Virus record (IMG/VR): IMGVR_UViG_3300038345_000076
Coordinates: 1-64,000 of that record
Length of the DNA stretch: 64,000 bases
Source of the DNA: a virus
Lineage: Duplodnaviria > Caudoviricetes
Direction: 5' to 3' (one strand)
Shown piece by piece: positions 7,873-53,236 of the stretch (positions are counted from its first letter, which is position 1; each line of letters opens with the position of its first letter). Both the position numbers and the translations under genes were made by a program. Under the pieces are notes generated by a model. It was not told the DNA's origin. It worked only from the letters and a program-made list of their open reading frames with translations, and did no database searches.

Positions 7873-9045
7873 TTATCTGATGTGCTTCTTTATCTCTTCG
7901 GCAATCGTATCATCGAGTAATCGCGCATACGCCTGTTCCGTCTGCCTGATGCTCGAATGACCGAGAATCCTGCTAACGACACTGATAGGTACGCCTGCAT
8001 TAAGAAGTATATAGGCACACGAGCGACGGCCATCGTGACTTGTCATTTGCTTGTCAATCCCCGCTGCATCTGCTACAAGTTTCAGTTTGACGTTGTACTT
8101 TTGGTTTGGTAGTTTCGGGAGGTGGTACTCATATTTCTCCAAAATTGCCTTTGCCTTTGGTGTAAGGACGAAAGTGAACAGTACTCCAGTCTTTGAACGG
8201 TAGCCGCTGAATACAGAATAGTTATTGGCGTTAGTACACTGAGTGAAGTCGTAAGCCATAAGGTCAACGTATGACAGCCCCGTGAACACTTGGATCAGAA
8301 ACAAATCTCTTGCCTCAGACAGACTTTTTGTGGGCATTCCAGCATTTTCAATCTTCTCAATCTCTTTTTTTGTGAGAAACTTGTCTATCCTGGTGCTGCC
8401 TTTGTCGATCTTGATACGCTTGGTAGAGTAGGGGTTATCCTTAACATACCCGTCAACCATGGCATCGTTGATAAATACTTTGAGGTTCTTGTGCATTGAT
8501 CCGATGCTTGCCTGAGAATACTTTCGTGTTACCTTCTTTCCAAAGCGGTCTTTTTCTTCCCATGTGACAGTATGCAGGTATTCGTCCCATTTTCTGATGT
8601 TTGATTCAGTAATGTCTCTGAAGTATTGCATCTTTCCCCATTCCGTAAAACGGGATAAGAACACATGATAGGCTTTCTTGGTATAGTCAGACACCTGTTT
8701 TGCCTTCATTCTCTTGTGGATATAGTCTTCAAACGTGATATCCGTGTCTTTCTGCTTAATAAGTGATGGTATTGCGTTGAGGTCAATGTTCTCTGCATCT
8801 ACCATTTCTCCGATGATTTTAAGCGCACGTTTTCTTATCTTCATAAGCATGGCATTGTCTTCCTGTGAGCTGAGTGACTTGATGCTTTCGTGTGCATCGT
8901 ACCACTCTCCAGGAAAGCACTTAACGCCAGTAGTGATGAACTTCTGCTTACGGTTGAAAGTAATGCGCAGTTCAATGACACCCTTTTTTATATTGGATGC
9001 CAGGTGCTTGCGGTCAAATACAAATTTTATCTGAGGTATAATCAT
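7873..9045 (-). CDS. int: Phage integrase (Bacteroidetes-type tyrosine recombinase with arm-binding domain)
   Basis: N-terminal IELRITFNRKQKFITTG arm domain; FTGLSYVDL, HDGRR, LGHSS and catalytic Tyr (QAYA). Confidence 0.93.
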   Translation of the reverse strand: MIIPQIKFVFDRKHLASNIKKGVIELRITFNRKQKFITTGVKCFPGEWYDAHESIKSLSSQEDNAMLMKIRKRALKIIGEMVDAENIDLNAIPSLIKQKDTDITFEDYIHKRMKAKQVSDYTKKAYHVFLSRFTEWGKMQYFRDITESNIRKWDEYLHTVTWEEKDRFGKKVTRKYSQASIGSMHKNLKVFINDAMVDGYVKDNPYSTKRIKIDKGSTRIDKFLTKKEIEKIENAGMPTKSLSEARDLFLIQVFTGLSYVDLMAYDFTQCTNANNYSVFSGYRSKTGVLFTFVLTPKAKAILEKYEYHLPKLPNQKYNVKLKLVADAAGIDKQMTSHDGRRSCAYILLNAGVPISVVSRILGHSSIRQTEQAYARLLDDTIAEEIKKHIR

Positions 9046-13686: not shown

Positions 13687-14664
13687 ATGGAGAATTTTGT
13701 AGCAGAACCGATTATCGTTGGTCTTGACAACGAAATCTATCATCGTGGCGAGGGCTATGACCAATATCTTTCCTCGACACAGATTAAGGATTACTTGGTA
13801 TCTCCGAAATACGCCAAGTACAAACACGACCATCCAGAGGAATTTGTCATTTCGGACGATGCGCTGGAGTTTGGCAGTATGTATCATGCTTACATGGAAA
13901 GCCTGTTGAAGCATGGTGATTCGTCGGAGTTCGACAAGCAGTATCGGGTGTTTGATGCTCCTGTCAACGAACGGACTGGCAAGCCATACGGACGTGACAC
14001 GGCAAAGTATATTGCCGCACTTGAAGCCGTCAAGCAGGAACACCCCGATTGGGAGTTTGTATCGGAAGAGCGAGTTGCCCTTGTCAAGGTGATGGTTGGT
14101 GAACTTCTGAATAACTGTGGCGAGACATCGAAACAGGTAAAGACCATTCTCAAACAAGGTCAGTCAGAGGTCAGTCACTTTGTCGAGTACGAGGGGTGCA
14201 AGTTCAAGTTTCGACCAGACGTGGAGACTAAGCGTAAGATTGTTGACTGGAAGACCGTTAGCCTTGAAAGTCTGCATCCAGGAGCGATTGCAAAGACTAT
14301 CACGAAGTTCGGCTACGGCATATCAGCCGCTTTCTACCAGTTCTTCGAGCATGAGCAGAGTGGTGTGTGGAAAGACTTCTATTGGGTGTTCCAACAGAAG
14401 ACACCGCCATACGATGCCGTGATGGTGAGTGCCGCACAATGGGCATACTCCTACAACAAGGAATACGATGTGGTGAGCATGGGACCGAGTGCCTTGCTCT
14501 TCAAGAAACTTCTTGATCAGTATATCGAGTGTCAGAAGACGGGCATCTATCAAGGTGCTGAGATTTTCATTGAGCCTGGCTTCAGGGGTCACAGAATTAT
14601 GGAAGTTGACGCTCCTATTTCAAGCAACGAGTTTAGGTTTTACAATTCAAGTAATAAGGAATAA
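13687..14664 (+). CDS. RecE/ExoVIII-like PD-(D/E)XK exonuclease (DUF3799-like)
   Basis: YH...LSSTQIK, FGSMYH, KFRPD...IVDWKT, YGISAAFY; lies upstream of recT. Confidence 0.85.
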   Translation: MENFVAEPIIVGLDNEIYHRGEGYDQYLSSTQIKDYLVSPKYAKYKHDHPEEFVISDDALEFGSMYHAYMESLLKHGDSSEFDKQYRVFDAPVNERTGKPYGRDTAKYIAALEAVKQEHPDWEFVSEERVALVKVMVGELLNNCGETSKQVKTILKQGQSEVSHFVEYEGCKFKFRPDVETKRKIVDWKTVSLESLHPGAIAKTITKFGYGISAAFYQFFEHEQSGVWKDFYWVFQQKTPPYDAVMVSAAQWAYSYNKEYDVVSMGPSALLFKKLLDQYIECQKTGIYQGAEIFIEPGFRGHRIMEVDAPISSNEFRFYNSSNKE

Positions 14665-14669
14665 CGATT

Positions 14670-15611
14670 ATGGCAGAACAGAAGAAAAACGAAGCCCAGC
14701 AGCAGGACGCATTTGAGAACAATGCTGGCACACAACAACCTGCTGGAGAAGCAGCAGGCACGACGGCACAACCGCAGCCAGAGCCACAGGCGCAGAACGC
14801 GCAAGCACCGCAACCGCAGAAAGACGAAGATGGTCTTGTGAAGATTTCGCAAGGTCTTCCACCTCAGTTGAAGCCTTTGCAGAACTGCTTCACAGCACCT
14901 TACAAGACTTTCCTCCAGAACGGCAAGACTATTCAGGACTTGCAGCGTGAGTGTAACTTTGCGGCGCAAGCCATGTTGAACAACCCCTATCTGATTACTT
15001 GCGCACAGCAGTACCCAGACCATTTCGTGAATGCATTGAAGAATGTGGTGCTGACTGGCATGACGCTGAATCCTACCTTGAAACTCGCGTACCTTGTGCC
15101 TTACAAGGGTAAGGTTGAACTCCAAGCCTCTTATATGGGTAAGAAGAGTTTCGGCGTGAATACAGGTCTGGTTCTTGACATGGAAGCCTACCTTGTCTAT
15201 AAGGGTGAGTCGTTTGAGATTGAGCAGGGCAGTAACGCCCATATCACTCACAAGCCAAACCCTTGGGGATCGAAGAAGAAGGAGGACATTCTCGGTGGCT
15301 ACTACCTGATTAAGTACCCGAACGGCACACAGCAGTTCGATACCATGTCTATCGACGAGATAGAGGGTATTCGCAAGCGCAGCCCGTCAGTCGGTAAGGG
15401 CAAGCAAAGCCCCTGGGACACTGACTACACGGAAATGTGCAAGAAGACGCTGATCAACCGTGCCTACAAGCAGATACCGAAGCAGGGTATGTCTGAGAAA
15501 GCGGCAAAGGCACTGGAAATTCTCAACCGTGTTGACGATATGGCTGCAAAGGATATTAACTACGGTCAGAATCCTAAGATTGACGATTTCGACGAGGCAG
15601 AAGAGGTATAA
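14670..15611 (+). CDS. recT: RecT family recombinase
   Basis: GMTLNP..KLAYLVPYK, SPWDTDYTEMCKKTLI. Confidence 0.9.
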   Translation: MAEQKKNEAQQQDAFENNAGTQQPAGEAAGTTAQPQPEPQAQNAQAPQPQKDEDGLVKISQGLPPQLKPLQNCFTAPYKTFLQNGKTIQDLQRECNFAAQAMLNNPYLITCAQQYPDHFVNALKNVVLTGMTLNPTLKLAYLVPYKGKVELQASYMGKKSFGVNTGLVLDMEAYLVYKGESFEIEQGSNAHITHKPNPWGSKKKEDILGGYYLIKYPNGTQQFDTMSIDEIEGIRKRSPSVGKGKQSPWDTDYTEMCKKTLINRAYKQIPKQGMSEKAAKALEILNRVDDMAAKDINYGQNPKIDDFDEAEEV

Positions 15612-18554: not shown

Positions 18555-18572
18555 ACATTACAGGAATAAAGT
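18555..18572 (+). repeat. Recombination site A1
   Basis: agtcACATTA-CAGGAA-TAAAGT; inverted partner is A2. Confidence 0.8.
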
Positions 18573-18576
18573 AGCG

Positions 18577-19593
18577 ATGGAAGTCAACAGAGTATATAAT
18601 GAAGACTGCCTTACTGGATTGAAGAAACTTCCAGACAACTGCATTGACTGCTGCGTGACATCGCCACCATATTACGCCCTGCGTGACTATGGCATGGATG
18701 AGCAAATAGGACTGGAGGAAACACCACAAGCGTACATCGACAGACTGACGGACGTGTTCATGAATGTGTACCGAGTGCTGAAACCTACGGGCACCTGCTG
18801 GCTCAACATTGGCGACAGTTACAATGGCAACAAGAAAGGCAACACCGAGACCAACAAGAACAAGCGAGTAGCCGAGAGCAACCATTTCGAGAAAAAGCTA
18901 TGGGACGGCGCAAAGCAAAAGGACTTAATCGGTATTCCCTGGATGTTGGCTTTCACGCTGCGAGCAAAAGGCTGGTATCTGCGACAGGACATCATTTGGC
19001 ACAAGCCTAACGCAATGCCAGAAAGCGTTACTGACAGGCTGACAAAGAGCCATGAGTATATTTTCCTTATGAGCAAAAGCAGCAAGTATTACTTCGACCA
19101 TGAGGCAATACAAGAAGTCGCCACGGGGTATGATGGAAGAAAAGACACCATGATGCACGGCTCTCCTAAGTATAACATTATTCCTGTAATGCCGCATGGA
19201 AAGCGTCAAGATCTTACAAAGAACGAGCATCAGCGGTGGCGTTTCAAGAACCTACAAGAAGATGGTCAGCAGCCAAACACCATGCACCTTCGCCGTGCTG
19301 AAGGACTTCCTGATAAGCAATACCCTATCAGGAACAAACGAGACGTGTGGTCTGTGAATACCAAACCAGACCATAACGCCCATTTCGCTGTCTATCCTGA
19401 AGAATTGATAAGACCTTGCATCCTTGCAGGTTGTCCGAAAGACGGTATCGTTCTTGATCCGTTCATGGGTAGTGGTACGACGGCGAGAGTAGCACGGCAA
19501 TATGGCAGGAACTTTATCGGCTACGAATTGAATCCAGAATACATCAAAATTATAGAGCGTAAAATTGTCGTTGAACAGGATATGTTTATCTGA
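18577..19593 (+). CDS. Beta-class amino-MTase (SPPY; N4-cytosine-like), currently ON
   Basis: CVTSPPYY near the N-terminus, LDPFMGSGTT near the C-terminus. Confidence 0.92.
   Translation: MEVNRVYNEDCLTGLKKLPDNCIDCCVTSPPYYALRDYGMDEQIGLEETPQAYIDRLTDVFMNVYRVLKPTGTCWLNIGDSYNGNKKGNTETNKNKRVAESNHFEKKLWDGAKQKDLIGIPWMLAFTLRAKGWYLRQDIIWHKPNAMPESVTDRLTKSHEYIFLMSKSSKYYFDHEAIQEVATGYDGRKDTMMHGSPKYNIIPVMPHGKRQDLTKNEHQRWRFKNLQEDGQQPNTMHLRRAEGLPDKQYPIRNKRDVWSVNTKPDHNAHFAVYPEELIRPCILAGCPKDGIVLDPFMGSGTTARVARQYGRNFIGYELNPEYIKIIERKIVVEQDMFI
19175..19192 (-). repeat. Recombination site A2 (intragenic)
   Basis: ACATTA-TTCCTG-TAATGC; shares CATTACAGGAATAA (14 bp) inverted with A1. Confidence 0.8.
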
Positions 19594-19594
19594 C

Positions 19595-19612
19595 ACATTA
19601 TCTTTGTAATGT
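19595..19612 (-). repeat. Recombination site B1
   Basis: ACATTA-TCTTTG-TAATGT. Confidence 0.88.
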
Positions 19613-19849: not shown

Positions 19850-19867
19850 ACATTACAAAGATAAAGT
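19850..19867 (+). repeat. Recombination site B2
   Basis: agtcACATTA-CAAAGA-TAAAGT; 15-bp perfect inverted repeat (ACATTACAAAGATAA) with B1. Confidence 0.88.
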
Positions 19868-29398: not shown

Positions 29399-29914
29399 AT
29401 GAAAGAGGTTTGGAAAGACGTTGAAGGTTACGAAGGTCTTTATCAAGTGAGTAACCTTGGACGGGTAAAAAGCCTACCCAAAATGATTGGAAGAGGTGTT
29501 CAGTATCATGTTGGCGAGCGCATAATTACGCCTCACAAAGCCCCTAATGGGTATCTGCGTTTACATCTTGACAAAAACGGTAAAAGAGCATTCTTTTCAG
29601 TTCATAGGCTTGTTGCGAAAGCCTTTGTAGCGAATCCTCACAACTATCCTCATGTAAACCATAAGAATGAGGTGAAGAATGACAATGTTGCTTCTAATCT
29701 TGAATGGTGTACCCCAAAATATAATTCCAATTACGGAACAAGAAAATCAAGAATATCTCAAAGTAAAATGGGGCATATCGTTTCAGAGGTAACAAAAGCT
29801 AAACTGAGAGAAGCAAACTTAGGCTCAAATAGTCCATCTTTTGGAAAGAAGAGAACCGATGAAACGAGAATGAAAATCAGTAAAGCATTGAAGCGTTTTT
29901 ATTCAGAAAAGTAG
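29399..29914 (+). CDS. NUMOD4-HNH-NUMOD3 homing endonuclease
   Basis: EVWKDVEGYEGLYQVSNLGRVKS, VNHKNEVKNDN, GKKRTDETRMKIS. Confidence 0.9.
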   Translation: MKEVWKDVEGYEGLYQVSNLGRVKSLPKMIGRGVQYHVGERIITPHKAPNGYLRLHLDKNGKRAFFSVHRLVAKAFVANPHNYPHVNHKNEVKNDNVASNLEWCTPKYNSNYGTRKSRISQSKMGHIVSEVTKAKLREANLGSNSPSFGKKRTDETRMKISKALKRFYSEK

Positions 29915-29916
29915 CC

Positions 29917-29934
29917 ACATTATCGCTATAATGA
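29917..29934. repeat. Orphan recombination site E1
   Basis: ccACATTA-TCGCTA-TAATGA. Confidence 0.65.
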
Positions 29935-29950
29935 AACAAACTGAATTATT

Positions 29951-30274
29951 ATGAACAAAGAAGAGTATTTGAAAGCAGAGAAAGCCATTAAGGAAGAGTT
30001 TGAAGGAAAAAGAAAGCAACTCGCAAGAGAGTTTGCCTCTTCAAACAATCCTGTAAAGATAGGTGATATTATTACAGACCACTACAAGACTATTCGTGTA
30101 GAGAAGTTGTTGTGGGGTCATAACTTTGGCACTCCATTCTCTTGTATGTTTTATCGCGGTACTCGATTGACTAAGAATGGTCAACCTGCGAAGCGTGAGG
30201 CTGAAGATAACAGAGTGGCACAAACGGATATTAGAGAGATTAACGGCAGACCTTACAAATACGAGTTGAAGTAA
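29951..30274 (+). CDS. Hypothetical protein flanked by sites E1 and D1
   Basis: 107-aa ORF. Confidence 0.65.
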   Translation: MNKEEYLKAEKAIKEEFEGKRKQLAREFASSNNPVKIGDIITDHYKTIRVEKLLWGHNFGTPFSCMFYRGTRLTKNGQPAKREAEDNRVAQTDIREINGRPYKYELK

Positions 30275-30291
30275 CATTATGGAGGTAATGT
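30274..30291. repeat. Orphan recombination site D1
   Basis: taACATTA-TGGAGG-TAATGTgact. Confidence 0.7.
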
Positions 30292-30302
30292 GACTGAATA
30301 CA

Positions 30303-30320
30303 ACATTATTCGTGTAATGT
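30303..30320 (-). repeat. Recombination site C1
   Basis: ACATTA-TTCGTG-TAATGTaact. Confidence 0.85.
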
Positions 30321-30325
30321 AACTT

Positions 30326-30994
30326 ATGAAACCAATTAGTGACGTTTATAATATAGATTGTCTGGAGTATATGAAAACACAGCCAGACAAGCGATTCGAT
30401 ATAGCCATTGTTGACCCGCCTTACGGACTGCCTGCAAAAAGTACACACGGGCAAGGTAAACTGAAGAACAGAAGCCTTAACAGGGGAAATATACACCAAT
30501 GGGATTTTAGACCACCAAAGGAATACTTTGAAGAGTTGTTCAGAGTATCGAAGAATCAGATAATTTGGGGTGGCAACTACTTTGAACTGCCTCCGTGTCG
30601 GTGTTTTGTCTGTTGGGATAAAGAACAAGTGTGGGAGAATTTCAGCCAATGCGAATTTGCTTGGACTTCATTCGACAAACCTGCAAAGATGATAAGGCTT
30701 GCTAATCGTGGTGGTGATGCAGACAAAGCAAAGTTCCATCCAACAGCAAAGAACGTGAAACTCTATGAGTATCTGCTGAAGACGTTTGCCAACAAAGGAG
30801 ATTTTATCTTTGACTCTCATTTGGGTAGTGGACCGTCAAGGATTGCAGCCTATAAGTTGGGATTCGATTTCGTTGGCTGTGAGATAGATGCAGATTATTA
30901 TCGTCTCGCTGATGAACGATTCAAGCGTGAATGTCTTGGAGAGTACACAATGAAAGACGGGAGAGTTGCAAAGCAGTTAGACCTTTTTGGATAA
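30326..30994 (+). CDS. Beta-class adenine-N6-like DNA MTase, currently ON
   Basis: IAIVDPPYG, QIIWGGNYF, FHPTAK, DSHLGSG. Confidence 0.92.
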   Translation: MKPISDVYNIDCLEYMKTQPDKRFDIAIVDPPYGLPAKSTHGQGKLKNRSLNRGNIHQWDFRPPKEYFEELFRVSKNQIIWGGNYFELPPCRCFVCWDKEQVWENFSQCEFAWTSFDKPAKMIRLANRGGDADKAKFHPTAKNVKLYEYLLKTFANKGDFIFDSHLGSGPSRIAAYKLGFDFVGCEIDADYYRLADERFKRECLGEYTMKDGRVAKQLDLFG

Positions 30995-31011
30995 CATTAC
31001 ACGAATAATGA
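30994..31011 (+). repeat. Recombination site C2
   Basis: ACATTA-CACGAA-TAATGA; 17-bp inverted match to C1. Confidence 0.85.
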
Positions 31012-31020
31012 GAGCGAACG

Positions 31021-31539
31021 ATGAACAAAAATATTGAAATTTGGAAGCCCGTATTGGTCTTGTTTAGTAGAGATAGCAAATGGAATCTGACGGATAGATA
31101 TGTTTTTCCGAAAGGTTTGTATTATGTTTCAAACATGGGACGTTTTCGTGTTAGAAATAAAATAAAAGAAACAAAACCAGACAGTGTTATGACTATCACT
31201 TACTGCCTAAACGGTCATAGGTTTAAACTACACGAAATCATCCTTCAGACATTTATGCCAGAAGGAAATATAGATGGTTTTTCGCCAGACCACATAAACA
31301 AGAAAAAGCGACTTGATAACAGATTATGCAATCTTAGATGGGCAGACCATCGCACTCAATATGCTAACCGTGAAAACAAAAAGTATAAGTTTAAAAAAGT
31401 TTTTTGCAAAGAGAAAGGAATTGTCTATGATTCCTGTCAGCAGGCAGAAAAAAGTCTTGGGCTTACTTTTAACACCGTTTCTCGTGTCGCAAGGGGTGAC
31501 AGAAAATCTATTCATGGATTCACTTTCGTTTTTGTGTAA
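31021..31539 (+). CDS. HNH/NUMOD1 homing endonuclease-like protein
   Basis: EIWKP, YYVSNMGR, PDHINK..RLDNRLCNLRW. Confidence 0.8.
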   Translation: MNKNIEIWKPVLVLFSRDSKWNLTDRYVFPKGLYYVSNMGRFRVRNKIKETKPDSVMTITYCLNGHRFKLHEIILQTFMPEGNIDGFSPDHINKKKRLDNRLCNLRWADHRTQYANRENKKYKFKKVFCKEKGIVYDSCQQAEKSLGLTFNTVSRVARGDRKSIHGFTFVFV

Positions 31540-35551: not shown

Positions 35552-35590
35552 GCAGGGAGTGGCGATCGGGCTGCTCCCTGCGTTTTTTTT
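35552..35590 (+). terminator. Intrinsic terminator ending the rightward operon
   Basis: GCAGGGAGTGGC-loop-GCTGCTCCCTGC followed by T8. Confidence 0.75.
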
Positions 35591-36428
35591 AGTGGTTGAA
35601 GAAATCCCTTGCATCATCACCAATGTTGTTGATGTCAACACAGACGTAGTGCTTGCTCGTAGTCTGGGAATTTGTGTGTCCTGCGAGTTTGGCAATGATC
35701 TCAACGGGTACACCACGGACTGCAAGGGCTGTGACGTAAGAGCGACGGCTGCTGTGCATGGTAATCCATTGATATTTGGGCTTGGTCTGCATACGCCCGT
35801 TACAGAAGAGTGTTATTTCCTCCGTAAATCCGAGTTTCTTGCAGATGCGCTGGATGGTACGGTTGACTACGCTTCGGTCAACTTCTTTTGTCGGATTCAT
35901 CTTTAGGTACTTTACAAGTCGTGCGTGAAGCGGTTGCTCAACGGCTACTTTCGTTTTCTTGCTGACGTATGAAAGCGTTTCGCCATGTACGTTGTCTGTT
36001 GACATGGTTCGGCAGTCGCTTGAACGTGCGCCGGAGAAAGCACCACGCATGAAAAGAATCTTGACATTCATTTCTGTCTCGCTCTTCGGCTTGTATTCGT
36101 CGAATAGGATAAGTTCTTCTTCCGTCAGGCAGCAGTGCTGAGACGGAATGACCTTTACCTTCAGAGCCTTGGCATAACGCATGGTTGGCAGTTCAACTTC
36201 TTCGCATACGTTGTTAAGGAATGCCTTGATGATGGAGCAATAGACCTGTGCAGAGTTCTGTGCGAGACGTTGGAGCATCAATTCCCGTACTTTGTTGAGG
36301 TTGCTCAGTGTGAGGTCTTTCCACTGGACTTCCTTTACTCCGATGGCTTCACGCATGAATCGGAGAATCTGGATTCTGCCCGGATTGCTCCGTTCAAATT
36401 CCTGTTCAAATGATAAAACTTTGTTCAT
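35589..36428 (-). CDS. Tyrosine recombinase without arm-binding domain (invertase/Xer-like candidate)
   Basis: Likely start MNKVLSF (279 aa); SGARSSD (R), KKT (K), HSSRR, LAGH, KHY. Confidence 0.88.
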   Translation of the reverse strand: MNKVLSFEQEFERSNPGRIQILRFMREAIGVKEVQWKDLTLSNLNKVRELMLQRLAQNSAQVYCSIIKAFLNNVCEEVELPTMRYAKALKVKVIPSQHCCLTEEELILFDEYKPKSETEMNVKILFMRGAFSGARSSDCRTMSTDNVHGETLSYVSKKTKVAVEQPLHARLVKYLKMNPTKEVDRSVVNRTIQRICKKLGFTEEITLFCNGRMQTKPKYQWITMHSSRRSYVTALAVRGVPVEIIAKLAGHTNSQTTSKHYVCVDINNIGDDARDFFNH

Positions 36429-36586: not shown

Positions 36587-37786
36587 TCAAGATACCCTGT
36601 ATGGAAATATGCAGAGGTCAGAAAAACCACTAAAGAATTTTCTAACGTCGTCTGTTGCGGGCTGTTGTTCTGCCTGTATTCTCAAAATTTTCTGACGGCA
36701 GTCAGCATGAATGCTGCCGATGTCGTTGCACTGTCTTATCACCTCCTGAGTGCTGACATAAGCGCATTGAACGCGGGTTATCTCTGCACCAGAGAAGTAA
36801 AGCATATCGCCACAGCCTGTAAGTTTCTCGGCACCTATCTGGTCTATGACCACACGGCTGTCCGTTCCCGTCGTGGTGCGGAATGCAATACGTGTCGGGA
36901 AGTTTGCCTTGATGTTACCCGTAACGATGGTTGCAGACGGTCGCTGGGTGGAGATTACGAGGTGCATCCCAACGGCACGGGCTTTCTGTGCGAGTCGGCA
37001 GATGTAATATTCGATATTCCGTCCGTACTGGCGATCCATTACAAGGTCGCCGTACTCGTCGATGACAATGACGTAATACTCCATCGTCTTTTCGCTTACA
37101 TCGTTGTACTCCTTGATGTTTCTTGCGCCAACCTCGTTGAGCATGGTGTAACGCTTTTCCATGAGGCGACAAAGCGCATCGAGCATGGTCTGAGCATGAG
37201 CCGCCTCAGTTATGATTGGTGGCATACCAAGCATCTGCGTGATGTATGGTCGTGCTATCGAGGTGTATGCTGACAGTTCGACTTTCTTTGGGTCGATTAG
37301 CACTAACTTCAACTCTTCTGGTGTCTTCTTATGCAAGAGCGACATGAGCATAACGTTAAGTCCAACAGACTTTCCTTGCCCTGTAGCACCTGCAACGAGA
37401 AGATGCGGCATTTCGGCAAGGTCGGCCATGAAGATTTCATTAGTCACGGTGCGTCCGATGGCTAACGGAAGAGCCATATCAGATGTAAGATATTCCTGGG
37501 ATTCAAGAATATCTGAGAGTGGCACGATTTCACGCTGTTTGTTCGGAATCTCGATTCCTACGCAACCATCGTACATCGGTGCAATGATGCGGACGGACGG
37601 GACGCGGAGAGCGGCAGCGATTTCGTTCTTGATGCCCGTGATGCGAGAGATACGCATGCCGAGCATTGGACGGAACTTGTAGAGCGTGACGTTTGTACCA
37701 CGCAGTTCCTCGAAGTCGTAGGTCTGTATCTTGTAGGACAGCAGTACGGACTTGAGGAAGTCGGATTGTGATTGTTGTTCGTTCAT
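36587..37786 (-). CDS. ftsK: FtsK/SpoIIIE-like DNA translocase motor (no membrane domain, no evident gamma domain)
   Basis: SVRIIAP..GCVGIEIPN (alpha domain), MPHLLVAGATGQGKS, VIVIDEYGDL, RLAQKARAVGMHL, GAEKLTGCGDMLY. Confidence 0.92.
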   Translation of the reverse strand: MNEQQSQSDFLKSVLLSYKIQTYDFEELRGTNVTLYKFRPMLGMRISRITGIKNEIAAALRVPSVRIIAPMYDGCVGIEIPNKQREIVPLSDILESQEYLTSDMALPLAIGRTVTNEIFMADLAEMPHLLVAGATGQGKSVGLNVMLMSLLHKKTPEELKLVLIDPKKVELSAYTSIARPYITQMLGMPPIITEAAHAQTMLDALCRLMEKRYTMLNEVGARNIKEYNDVSEKTMEYYVIVIDEYGDLVMDRQYGRNIEYYICRLAQKARAVGMHLVISTQRPSATIVTGNIKANFPTRIAFRTTTGTDSRVVIDQIGAEKLTGCGDMLYFSGAEITRVQCAYVSTQEVIRQCNDIGSIHADCRQKILRIQAEQQPATDDVRKFFSGFSDLCIFPYRVS

Positions 37787-52631: not shown

Positions 52632-53218
52632 AATTGCTAATATTTAAGGGTGTTACAAAATGTCAATTTTTACCGCTTTTTTTGCGGTGGTTACTCTCTC
52701 GTAACCTTTCACCTGCAAAGATACATTATAATACTTAATAATACAAAAAATAATACTTTAAATTACGTTTATAATGTGACTTTTTCCGAAATATTTACAA
52801 AATTAAAATTGAAGGTATTATTTTGCAATCTCTACTTTGCAAAATAAAGCTTTTTTGTCGGATCTGACTTCATGAAATGATATATATTATATAAAAAAAT
52901 CTATTGTTTAGGCTGTTCTTCTCAATACCTATATATATATTAAGTATGATTATTATTTGCGCTTAATTTGCGCTTTATGGTTGTTATAATATAATAAAGT
53001 GGTATTATTTACCTTTGCATCTATTTGCAACCAGATACGACATAATACGACGTAATACATGATATTATATATATAGAGAGAGAAAAAAAAAGAAATGTAT
53101 TTATATTGTTTGTTTGTTTGTTTGTGATTTATTTTATTTTGTGATGCAATTTTGTTAAGAAAAAAAGACTTTAGTACGATATTTATAAGTATTTGATTTT
53201 CAAGCGGTTAGAGATGTT

Positions 53219-53236
53219 ACATTATAGTTATAATGT
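53219..53236. repeat. Orphan recombination site F1
   Basis: gttACATTA-TAGTTA-TAATGTgact; degenerate copy AAATTA-CGTTTA-TAATGTgact at 52760. Confidence 0.65.

Follow-up and report, generated by a model that had tools for sequence, protein, structure and literature searches.

Positions 30303-31011 of the window, by which we mean the whole 64,000-nt stretch of DNA analysed here, hold one complete methyltransferase gene bracketed by two short inverted sites. A perfect inverted repeat of 17 nt (100% complementary) has its arms at 30304-30320 and 30994-31010 with 673 nt between them. Read as 18-mers, these arms correspond to the recombination site C1 (30303..30320; ACATTA, spacer TTCGTG, TAATGT) and to its inverted partner C2 (30994..31011; ACATTA, CACGAA, TAATGA), which carries the same spacer; no strand is assigned to these or to any other site of the family. 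The two sites match at 17 of 18 positions, and the sole difference is a base of the outer arm that is also carried by relatives. Between the arms, an ORF of 222 aa extends on the plus strand from an ATG at 30326 to 30994, separated from C1 by a gap of only 5 nt (AACTT), and the final A of its TAA stop codon (30992-30994) is also the first base of C2. The upstream neighbor ORF (29951-30274) stops at a further site, designated D1, and the downstream neighbor ORF (31021-31539) begins past C2, such that both lie outside the C segment. The exact 17-mer occurs in the window only as the two C arms; when up to three mismatches were allowed, five matches were found against 0.26 expected, a count reached in none of 100 shuffles.

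The gene is located inside a plus-strand replication and DNA-modification operon spanning ~10.4 to 35.9 kb of a phage genome that forms a single contig of 105,850 bp with 42.6% G+C. An identical contig is present in SRR1725612. This genome encodes a portal protein, terminase, DnaB, RecT, and primase, the RecT-like annealing protein being accompanied by an exonuclease at 13687-15611. A megablast search with the 12 kb around the cassette produced no match among cultured phage records, and the nearest cultured relatives by protein, which are Bacteroides, Phocaeicola, and Flavobacterium phages, share only ~41-51% identity (the portal is ~41% identical to those of Bacteroides, Phocaeicola, Parabacteroides, and Riemerella phages). 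Because the nearest cultured relatives are such phages, a Bacteroidota host is inferred, although not shown. A scan for sigma-70-type promoters and terminators around the cassette detected weak consensus matches only and no terminator; it was set aside, since Bacteroidota promoters are not covered by a scan of this type.

The cassette cargo (30326..30994, plus strand) scored 54.3 bits against the PF01555 (N6_N4_Mtase) profile, for which the cut-off is 26.7. It carries DPPY at residues 30-33 and, near the C-terminus, the SAM motif FDSHLGSGPS at residues 162-171 (LGSG at 166-169). The position of DPPY ahead of the SAM motif is the motif order typical of the beta-class, and the membership criterion for a PF01555 methyltransferase is met. 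In this methyltransferase family the DPPY form indicates N6-adenine rather than N4-cytosine modification, and the best solved-structure relatives of the cargo are the adenine methyltransferases MboIIA, CcrM, and DpnA. From sequence alone, the cargo is thus a predicted beta-class N6-adenine-type DNA methyltransferase. The original prediction for this locus had described a DPPY methyltransferase gene with C1 ending 5 nt before its ATG, C2 beginning on the last base of its stop codon, and a 17-bp inverted match between the two, bracketed so precisely that inversion would not affect the neighboring ORFs. Each of these claims held: the nature of the gene by the PF01555 score and the DPPY at residues 30-33, the site positions exactly to the base, and the bracketing by the location of both neighbors outside the segment as well as by their untouched state in inverted relatives. 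In two relatives (L009 and L012), an 81%-identical methyltransferase gene is found without the sites in a fixed co-directional context, which indicates that the sites do not belong to the gene itself and were added in this phage lineage. Separately, the methyltransferase ORF of L003, L008, L014, and L006 has no stop before C2 and runs through the recombination site, so that its C-terminal tail (for a total of 228, 245, or 286 aa) depends on orientation in those relatives.

C1 and C2 belong to a wider family of sites with the form ACATTA-N6-TAATGT, of which the 105,850-bp genome contains 10 copies, starting at 18555, 19175, 19595, 19850, 29917, 30274, 30303, 30994, 52760, and 53219. A logo built from 52 distinct copies, drawn from the genome and its relatives, reads GT(C/A)ACATTA for the left arm, T-N4-(G/C) for the spacer, and TAATGT(G)AC for the right arm, which corresponds to 9-bp palindromic arms around an asymmetric 6-bp spacer. 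Such a layout is that of a tyrosine-recombinase core site, as in dif, loxP, or FRT. Six of the 10 copies comprise three adjacent inverted pairs whose spacers match at 6/6 positions, namely A (CAGGAA), B (CAAAGA), and C (CACGAA). In pair A, the site A1 (18555..18572, spacer CAGGAA) lies ahead of a 338-aa methyltransferase and A2 (19175..19192, TTCCTG) lies inside the gene encoding it; pair B consists of B1 (19595..19612, TCTTTG) and B2 (19850..19867, CAAAGA). When the genome and its relatives are taken together, the conserved palindromic arms are common to at least six different pairs, whose spacers differ, and partner spacers change jointly: both C partners of L002 carry the variant TTTGTG/CACAAA, and pair A of L058 carries CTGGAA/TTCCAG. 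The spacers of A (TTCCTG) and C (TTCGTG) differ at one base only, and full independence of the pairs is therefore not shown. Beyond 53.2 kb no ACATTA-type site was detected save two look-alikes with two mismatches, at 74186 and 80184. In the distant loci that were fetched the family was essentially absent, with a single match in L050 (the scan covered ~940 kb, close relatives included). Two of the copies in the window (52760-52777 and 53219-53236) are unpaired, stand in direct orientation with different spacers, and are each followed by GACTTTTT; they lie in an AT-rich gap of 900 bp that separates divergent gene blocks and precedes the primase gene, and could conceivably act as a resolution or regulatory site for the same recombinase.

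The remaining two copies are orphans that lie close to the cassette. D1 (30274..30291, spacer TGGAGG) is an outer site whose partner in relatives, D2 (CCTTCA), is located just past C2; the site at 29917..29934 (spacer TCGCTA) is an F-type right-hand site, F2, whose partner in relatives (TAGCGA) lies ~1 kb upstream, the pair bracketing a whole gene. Compared with its relatives, the window thus holds a reduced version of the locus, in which D2, the cassettes designated E and F, and a second methyltransferase are all absent. HNH homing-endonuclease genes (NUMOD4/NUMOD3 and I-HmuI-like) are present at 29399-29914 and 31021-31539 of the window. The former, with its ATG at 29399, takes up the F slot, and the latter takes up the slot of the second methyltransferase and D2 in the relatives. 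Our reading from the comparison with relatives is that each HNH insertion removed one site and orphaned its partner (29917 and 30274, respectively). Since the locus has been remodelled and two of its slots hold HNH genes, the C switch of the window itself is possibly a relic.

The orientation of the cassette was analysed in relatives fetched from IMG/VR and metagenomes using the methyltransferase, which were aligned with blastn to positions 22-40 kb of the window and mapped for sites. The gene points in the same direction as its flanks, as in the window, in L002 (identical to L010), L013, L014, and L035, and is inverted against colinear flanks in L007 (identical to L001), L003 (identical to L011), L008, and L015. 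The architecture of L006 is complex: it appears inverted on a short right-flank match, and its state was left unassigned when orientations were tabulated. Counting it, four direct and five inverted arrangements were observed among nine distinct relatives with callable orientation. An invariant orientation of the gene in all relatives would have refuted the original prediction; this was looked for and is not what we found. Within L006 (positions 1-2121), C is flanked by two divergent 5' ends of genes resembling the second methyltransferase, 75% and 98.8% identical to L003, so that a different architecture or a chimeric short assembly is possible there.

The positions of the breaks were resolved at the level of the sites. 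For one inverted relative, L007, the contig spans 26.7 kb, and its flanks on either side of the cassette align colinearly with 23.7-38.1 kb of the window. In L007, L003, and L008, C1 (TTCGTG followed by TAATGT) leads directly into the reverse complement of the 3' end of the gene, and the reverse complement of the start codon precedes C2. The linkers to the outer D sites and the imperfect outer arm of C2 (TAATGA/TAATGG) have not moved, this arm remaining on the right-flank side whichever way the gene points; the crossover must therefore have occurred inside the C sites. L015 instead has both the linker and the TAATGA arm on the left, and was apparently flipped at the outer D pair. In a maximum-likelihood tree of the cassette with eight taxa, orientation requires three to four changes, which is no fewer than shuffled labels require, and opposite C states are found in the sister pairs L015/L013, L008/L014, and L007/L002. 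These observations satisfy three of the criteria for a tyrosine-recombinase inverton, namely flanking inverted repeats, core-site anatomy, and both orientations with breaks at the repeats. The prediction that the inverted gene lies antisense to the operon held for its orientation in relatives, with silencing remaining an inference from geometry; the overall claim of a whole-gene invertible cassette is likewise supported, with switching within one population inferred.

No near-identical strain with a flipped C cassette was detected among contigs encoding identical proteins, each methyltransferase variant being seen in a single C orientation; a gene identical to that of the window is present in only one further contig, where it points the same way, and the closest pair with opposite C states is only ~90% identical. 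Recent switching is consequently shown for E and F and not for C. It should be considered that look-ups by identical protein are blind to the opposite state in lineages whose ORF continues past the site, since inversion then alters the C-terminal tail.

Further flipping cassettes built on the same site family were found in the relatives. The E cassette (TTTTCC/GGAAAA and variants) encodes a 287-290-aa PAPS-reductase-domain protein and the F cassette (TAGCAA/TTGCTA or TAGCGA/TCGCTA) a protein of 310-333 aa that gives a weak radical-SAM match, a complete gene being bracketed to within a few bases in both; a D pair (TGAAGG/CCTTCA) is nested around C. Between L127 (498-1402) and L128 (420-1324), which come from different samples, we observed a clean inversion of E exactly between its sites, spanning 905 bp at 99.78% identity, and the 901 bp beside the cassette are 100% identical; this is the most recent flip seen for the site family. 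E is also inverted between L013 and L015, and F is inverted between L003 and L008 at 99.0% identity and located on the minus strand in the 87-kb scaffold L136. As for the other pairs of the window, the segment of pair B is inverted in L047 and that of pair A in L058 and L068. The cassette order F, E, D, C is constant in all relatives, and only the interiors flip.

Other features of these loci vary between relatives. In L136 (300-2105), the C5 cytosine methyltransferase is intact (601 aa) and lacks B-type sites; not all members of the lineage, therefore, share the B switch of the window. To the right of the C cassette, L003 (on the reverse strand), L007, L002, and L136 carry a second PF01555 methyltransferase of 273-274 aa, whose ATG lies in the outer arm of C2 (TAATGA) and whose codons 7-12 run through D2. 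A flip at the outer D pair would cut the start of this gene, and nested C and D could therefore set the two methyltransferases independently. In L014/L133 (454-1395), the E slot is taken by an unrelated gene of 313 aa that matches Sigma70_r4 and RNA_pol_A_CTD. The flanks of L003 and L014 are 99.4% identical and their C cassettes only 82%, which, together with this difference in the E slot, suggests that cassettes are apparently exchanged between phages besides flipping.

Three intact tyrosine recombinases are encoded by the genome, and no match to a serine recombinase (PF00239) was detected anywhere in its 105,850 bp. The candidate invertase is an Xer-like tyrosine recombinase of 279 aa (35589..36428, minus strand; PF00589) in which the catalytic residues R..K..HxxR..H..Y are all present and which lacks an arm-binding domain; its gene stands last in the same module, 4.6 kb downstream of C2, and adjoins an FtsK/SpoIIIE-like gene (36587..37786, minus strand). 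The recombinase and FtsK/SpoIIIE-like genes remain adjacent in all relatives examined (L007, L045, and L136). Synteny of the pair extends to L007 and L136, two site-bearing relatives whose recombinases are 48-50% identical to that of the window, the first 36 residues being identical between the window and L007. In a more distant relative (L045, 53 kb), a homologue 47% identical is likewise accompanied by the FtsK-like gene, yet the sites are lacking, and no comparable inverted repeats were detected around its methyltransferase genes; the link between recombinase and sites consequently remains unproven. With the candidate recombinase as the sole query, no viral contig was retrieved, and a two-sequence alignment added only L045. 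That the 279-aa enzyme drives the C inversion is an inference which we consider as plausible as its negation, and another phage recombinase or a host enzyme may act instead. The second tyrosine recombinase (7873-9045, 390 aa) has the arm-binding domain typical of integrases. The third, at ~90.4 kb beside a tail-fibre shufflon, is an unlikely driver, with no site of the family in its stretch; the recombinase/shufflon region (85.5-92.5 kb) has a different short repeat only.

Taken together, the reading that we regard as likely is that 30303-31011 constitutes a site-specific inversion switch with one complete methyltransferase gene as its cargo. The site anatomy, the occurrence of both orientations in relatives, the breakpoints inside the sites, and the matching changes of partner spacers are shown; we infer which recombinase acts, that switching is reversible within one population, that inversion turns expression ON and OFF, and that the phage benefits from it. 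In the proposed mechanism, C1 and C2 would serve as tyrosine-recombinase core sites with inverted arms of ~9 bp and identical 6-bp spacers, and conservative strand exchange within the spacers would flip the 673-bp interior. In the orientation of the window, the gene is co-directional with the plus-strand operon and would be transcribed from it; because C1 abuts the ATG, a promoter specific to the gene cannot fit, and its transcription has to come from the operon. In the flipped state it would lie antisense to the operon and presumably be off, the sequence of its neighbors remaining unchanged. No conserved ORF was detected on the other strand of the cassette, and the longest forward ATG-initiated ORF inside the inverted cassette of L007 has 76 aa, which argues for an ON/OFF switch rather than a swap of two alternatives. 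The differing spacers of the other pairs would keep each switch largely independent, and the resulting mixture of methylation states in a population may serve as a hedge against restriction that cuts unmethylated or methylated DNA.

Three rival explanations were considered. According to the first, the inversions are rare accidents of short-homology recombination or template switching at the 17-18-bp repeats, for instance via the RecT/exonuclease of the phage. This phage does encode an exonuclease and a RecT-like protein, and the lack of a near-identical pair with opposite C orientation is compatible with such an origin. However, at least six pairs keep their arms while their spacers differ, which is needed by protein recognition and not by homology; the breaks are clean at the sites even between contigs that are 99-100% identical; partner spacers change together; and orientation is no better ordered over the tree than shuffled labels are. 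We consequently regard accidental inversion as unlikely. The second rival retains a switch that once worked in the lineage and holds that the C pair of this particular genome is a fossil, the gene having been fixed ON through decay of the array. In its favor, D2, E, F, and the second methyltransferase have been lost in the window, HNH genes occupy two slots, and the gene points the same way in the sole other contig that carries an identical copy. Against it, C1 and C2 still match at 17 of 18 positions with a single difference common to relatives, the candidate recombinase keeps all its catalytic residues, and pairs A and B are intact in the same genome; the fossil reading is thus also improbable. 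The third rival, a regulatory RNA or DNA hairpin (an operator, a processing site, or a boundary resembling the PeSL elements that delimit cassettes in T4-type phages) with orientation differences arising from modular shuffling, can draw on the small palindrome in each site that is able to form a hairpin, the location of all sites at gene boundaries, the variable cassette content (the E slot of L014; the 99.4% and 82% identities of L003/L014 flanks and cassette), and the two unpaired copies in a large AT-rich intergenic region, but it leaves unexplained both the exact reverse-complement, co-varying partner spacers and the flips confined to the interior with both flanks colinear, and is very unlikely.

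The site-specific inversion switch was compared with known systems, beginning with Cre/loxP and FLP/FRT, for which heterospecific spacers (lox511, lox2272) and engineered FLEx switches have been developed. The phage sites resemble these in their palindromic arms and in the short asymmetric spacer that sets orientation and must match between partners; inverted partners flip the interior, and different spacers keep pairs on one molecule independent. As in FLEx switches, the unit that is turned around is a whole coding sequence, and the promoter lies outside it. In comparison with Cre/loxP, the phage arms are ~9 bp and not 13, the spacer is 6 bp and not 8, the array is natural and not engineered, and the recombinase is unidentified. 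Among bacterial systems, the type I hsdS "epigenetic invertons", such as the ivr locus of S. pneumoniae with its PsrA/CreX tyrosine recombinase (PMC7096588, PMC7672463), and the methyltransferase inversions described in gut bacteria (PMC11741434, PMC9881135) resemble the proposed phage switch in that a tyrosine recombinase changes methylation through several distinct pairs of inverted repeats, partly nested in one another. Those systems reshuffle half-genes for specificity domains in chromosomes, whereas here a complete Type II-like methyltransferase gene without an alternative partner is turned in a phage genome.

Invertible segments are also known from phages. The G segment of phage Mu and the C segment of P1 (Gin/Cin) are likewise phage-borne invertible whole genes with the promoter outside the segment; they depend on serine invertases with an enhancer and Fis and swap two alternative sets of tail-fibre genes. 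In contrast, this genome lacks a serine recombinase and the cassette lacks a conserved ORF on the opposite strand, so that the locus does not qualify as a Gin/Cin/Hin-type system. Nor does it qualify as a shufflon of the R64 Rci type, given the pair-specific spacers, the constant cassette order, and the flipping of interiors only. In Bacteroidales, invertons comprise invertible promoters as well as partial intergenic and intragenic segments (bioRxiv 10.1101/2023.03.11.532203), and the first candidate viral invertons were reported as 16 candidates in one study (PMC13501310), which does not mention methyltransferases. The likeness of the proposed switch to these invertons lies in the host phylum, which is the same by inference, and in short inverted repeats and tyrosine recombinases leading to population heterogeneity. 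The Bacteroidales inverton classes flip a promoter or part of a gene, and whole-gene flipping is not mentioned in the literature that we searched; this literature also contained no phage methyltransferase as a whole-gene inversion cassette and no natural array of such pair-specific spacers.

A bolder reading is that one Xer-like recombinase, possibly with the FtsK-like protein, runs at least six incompatible lox-like pairs, each of which independently flips a whole DNA-modification gene or its 5' end. The genes concerned would be two or three N6/N4 methyltransferases, a C5 methyltransferase, and PAPS-reductase-like and radical-SAM-like enzymes. We put this forward tentatively, since we judge the balance to tilt slightly against it. 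Should it prove true, one lineage would release virions with up to 2^n DNA-modification patterns, a natural counterpart of engineered multi-lox FLEx logic that would serve as a hedge against methylation-sensitive as well as methylation-dependent restriction.

Promoters, the tips of tail fibres, and specificity subunits are familiar targets of programmed inversion. What flips in the present locus is an entire enzyme gene, trimmed to the base pair within a densely packed operon of the phage, and several DNA-modification genes share this design, with one site family and pair-specific spacers. Provided that the switch is active, it would offer a possible genetic tool in the form of a small recombinase and a compact set of naturally occurring orthogonal recombination sites. 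These phages would then phase-vary their own epigenetic coat gene by gene, with implications for the way in which phages of the gut and rumen deal with diverse restriction systems.
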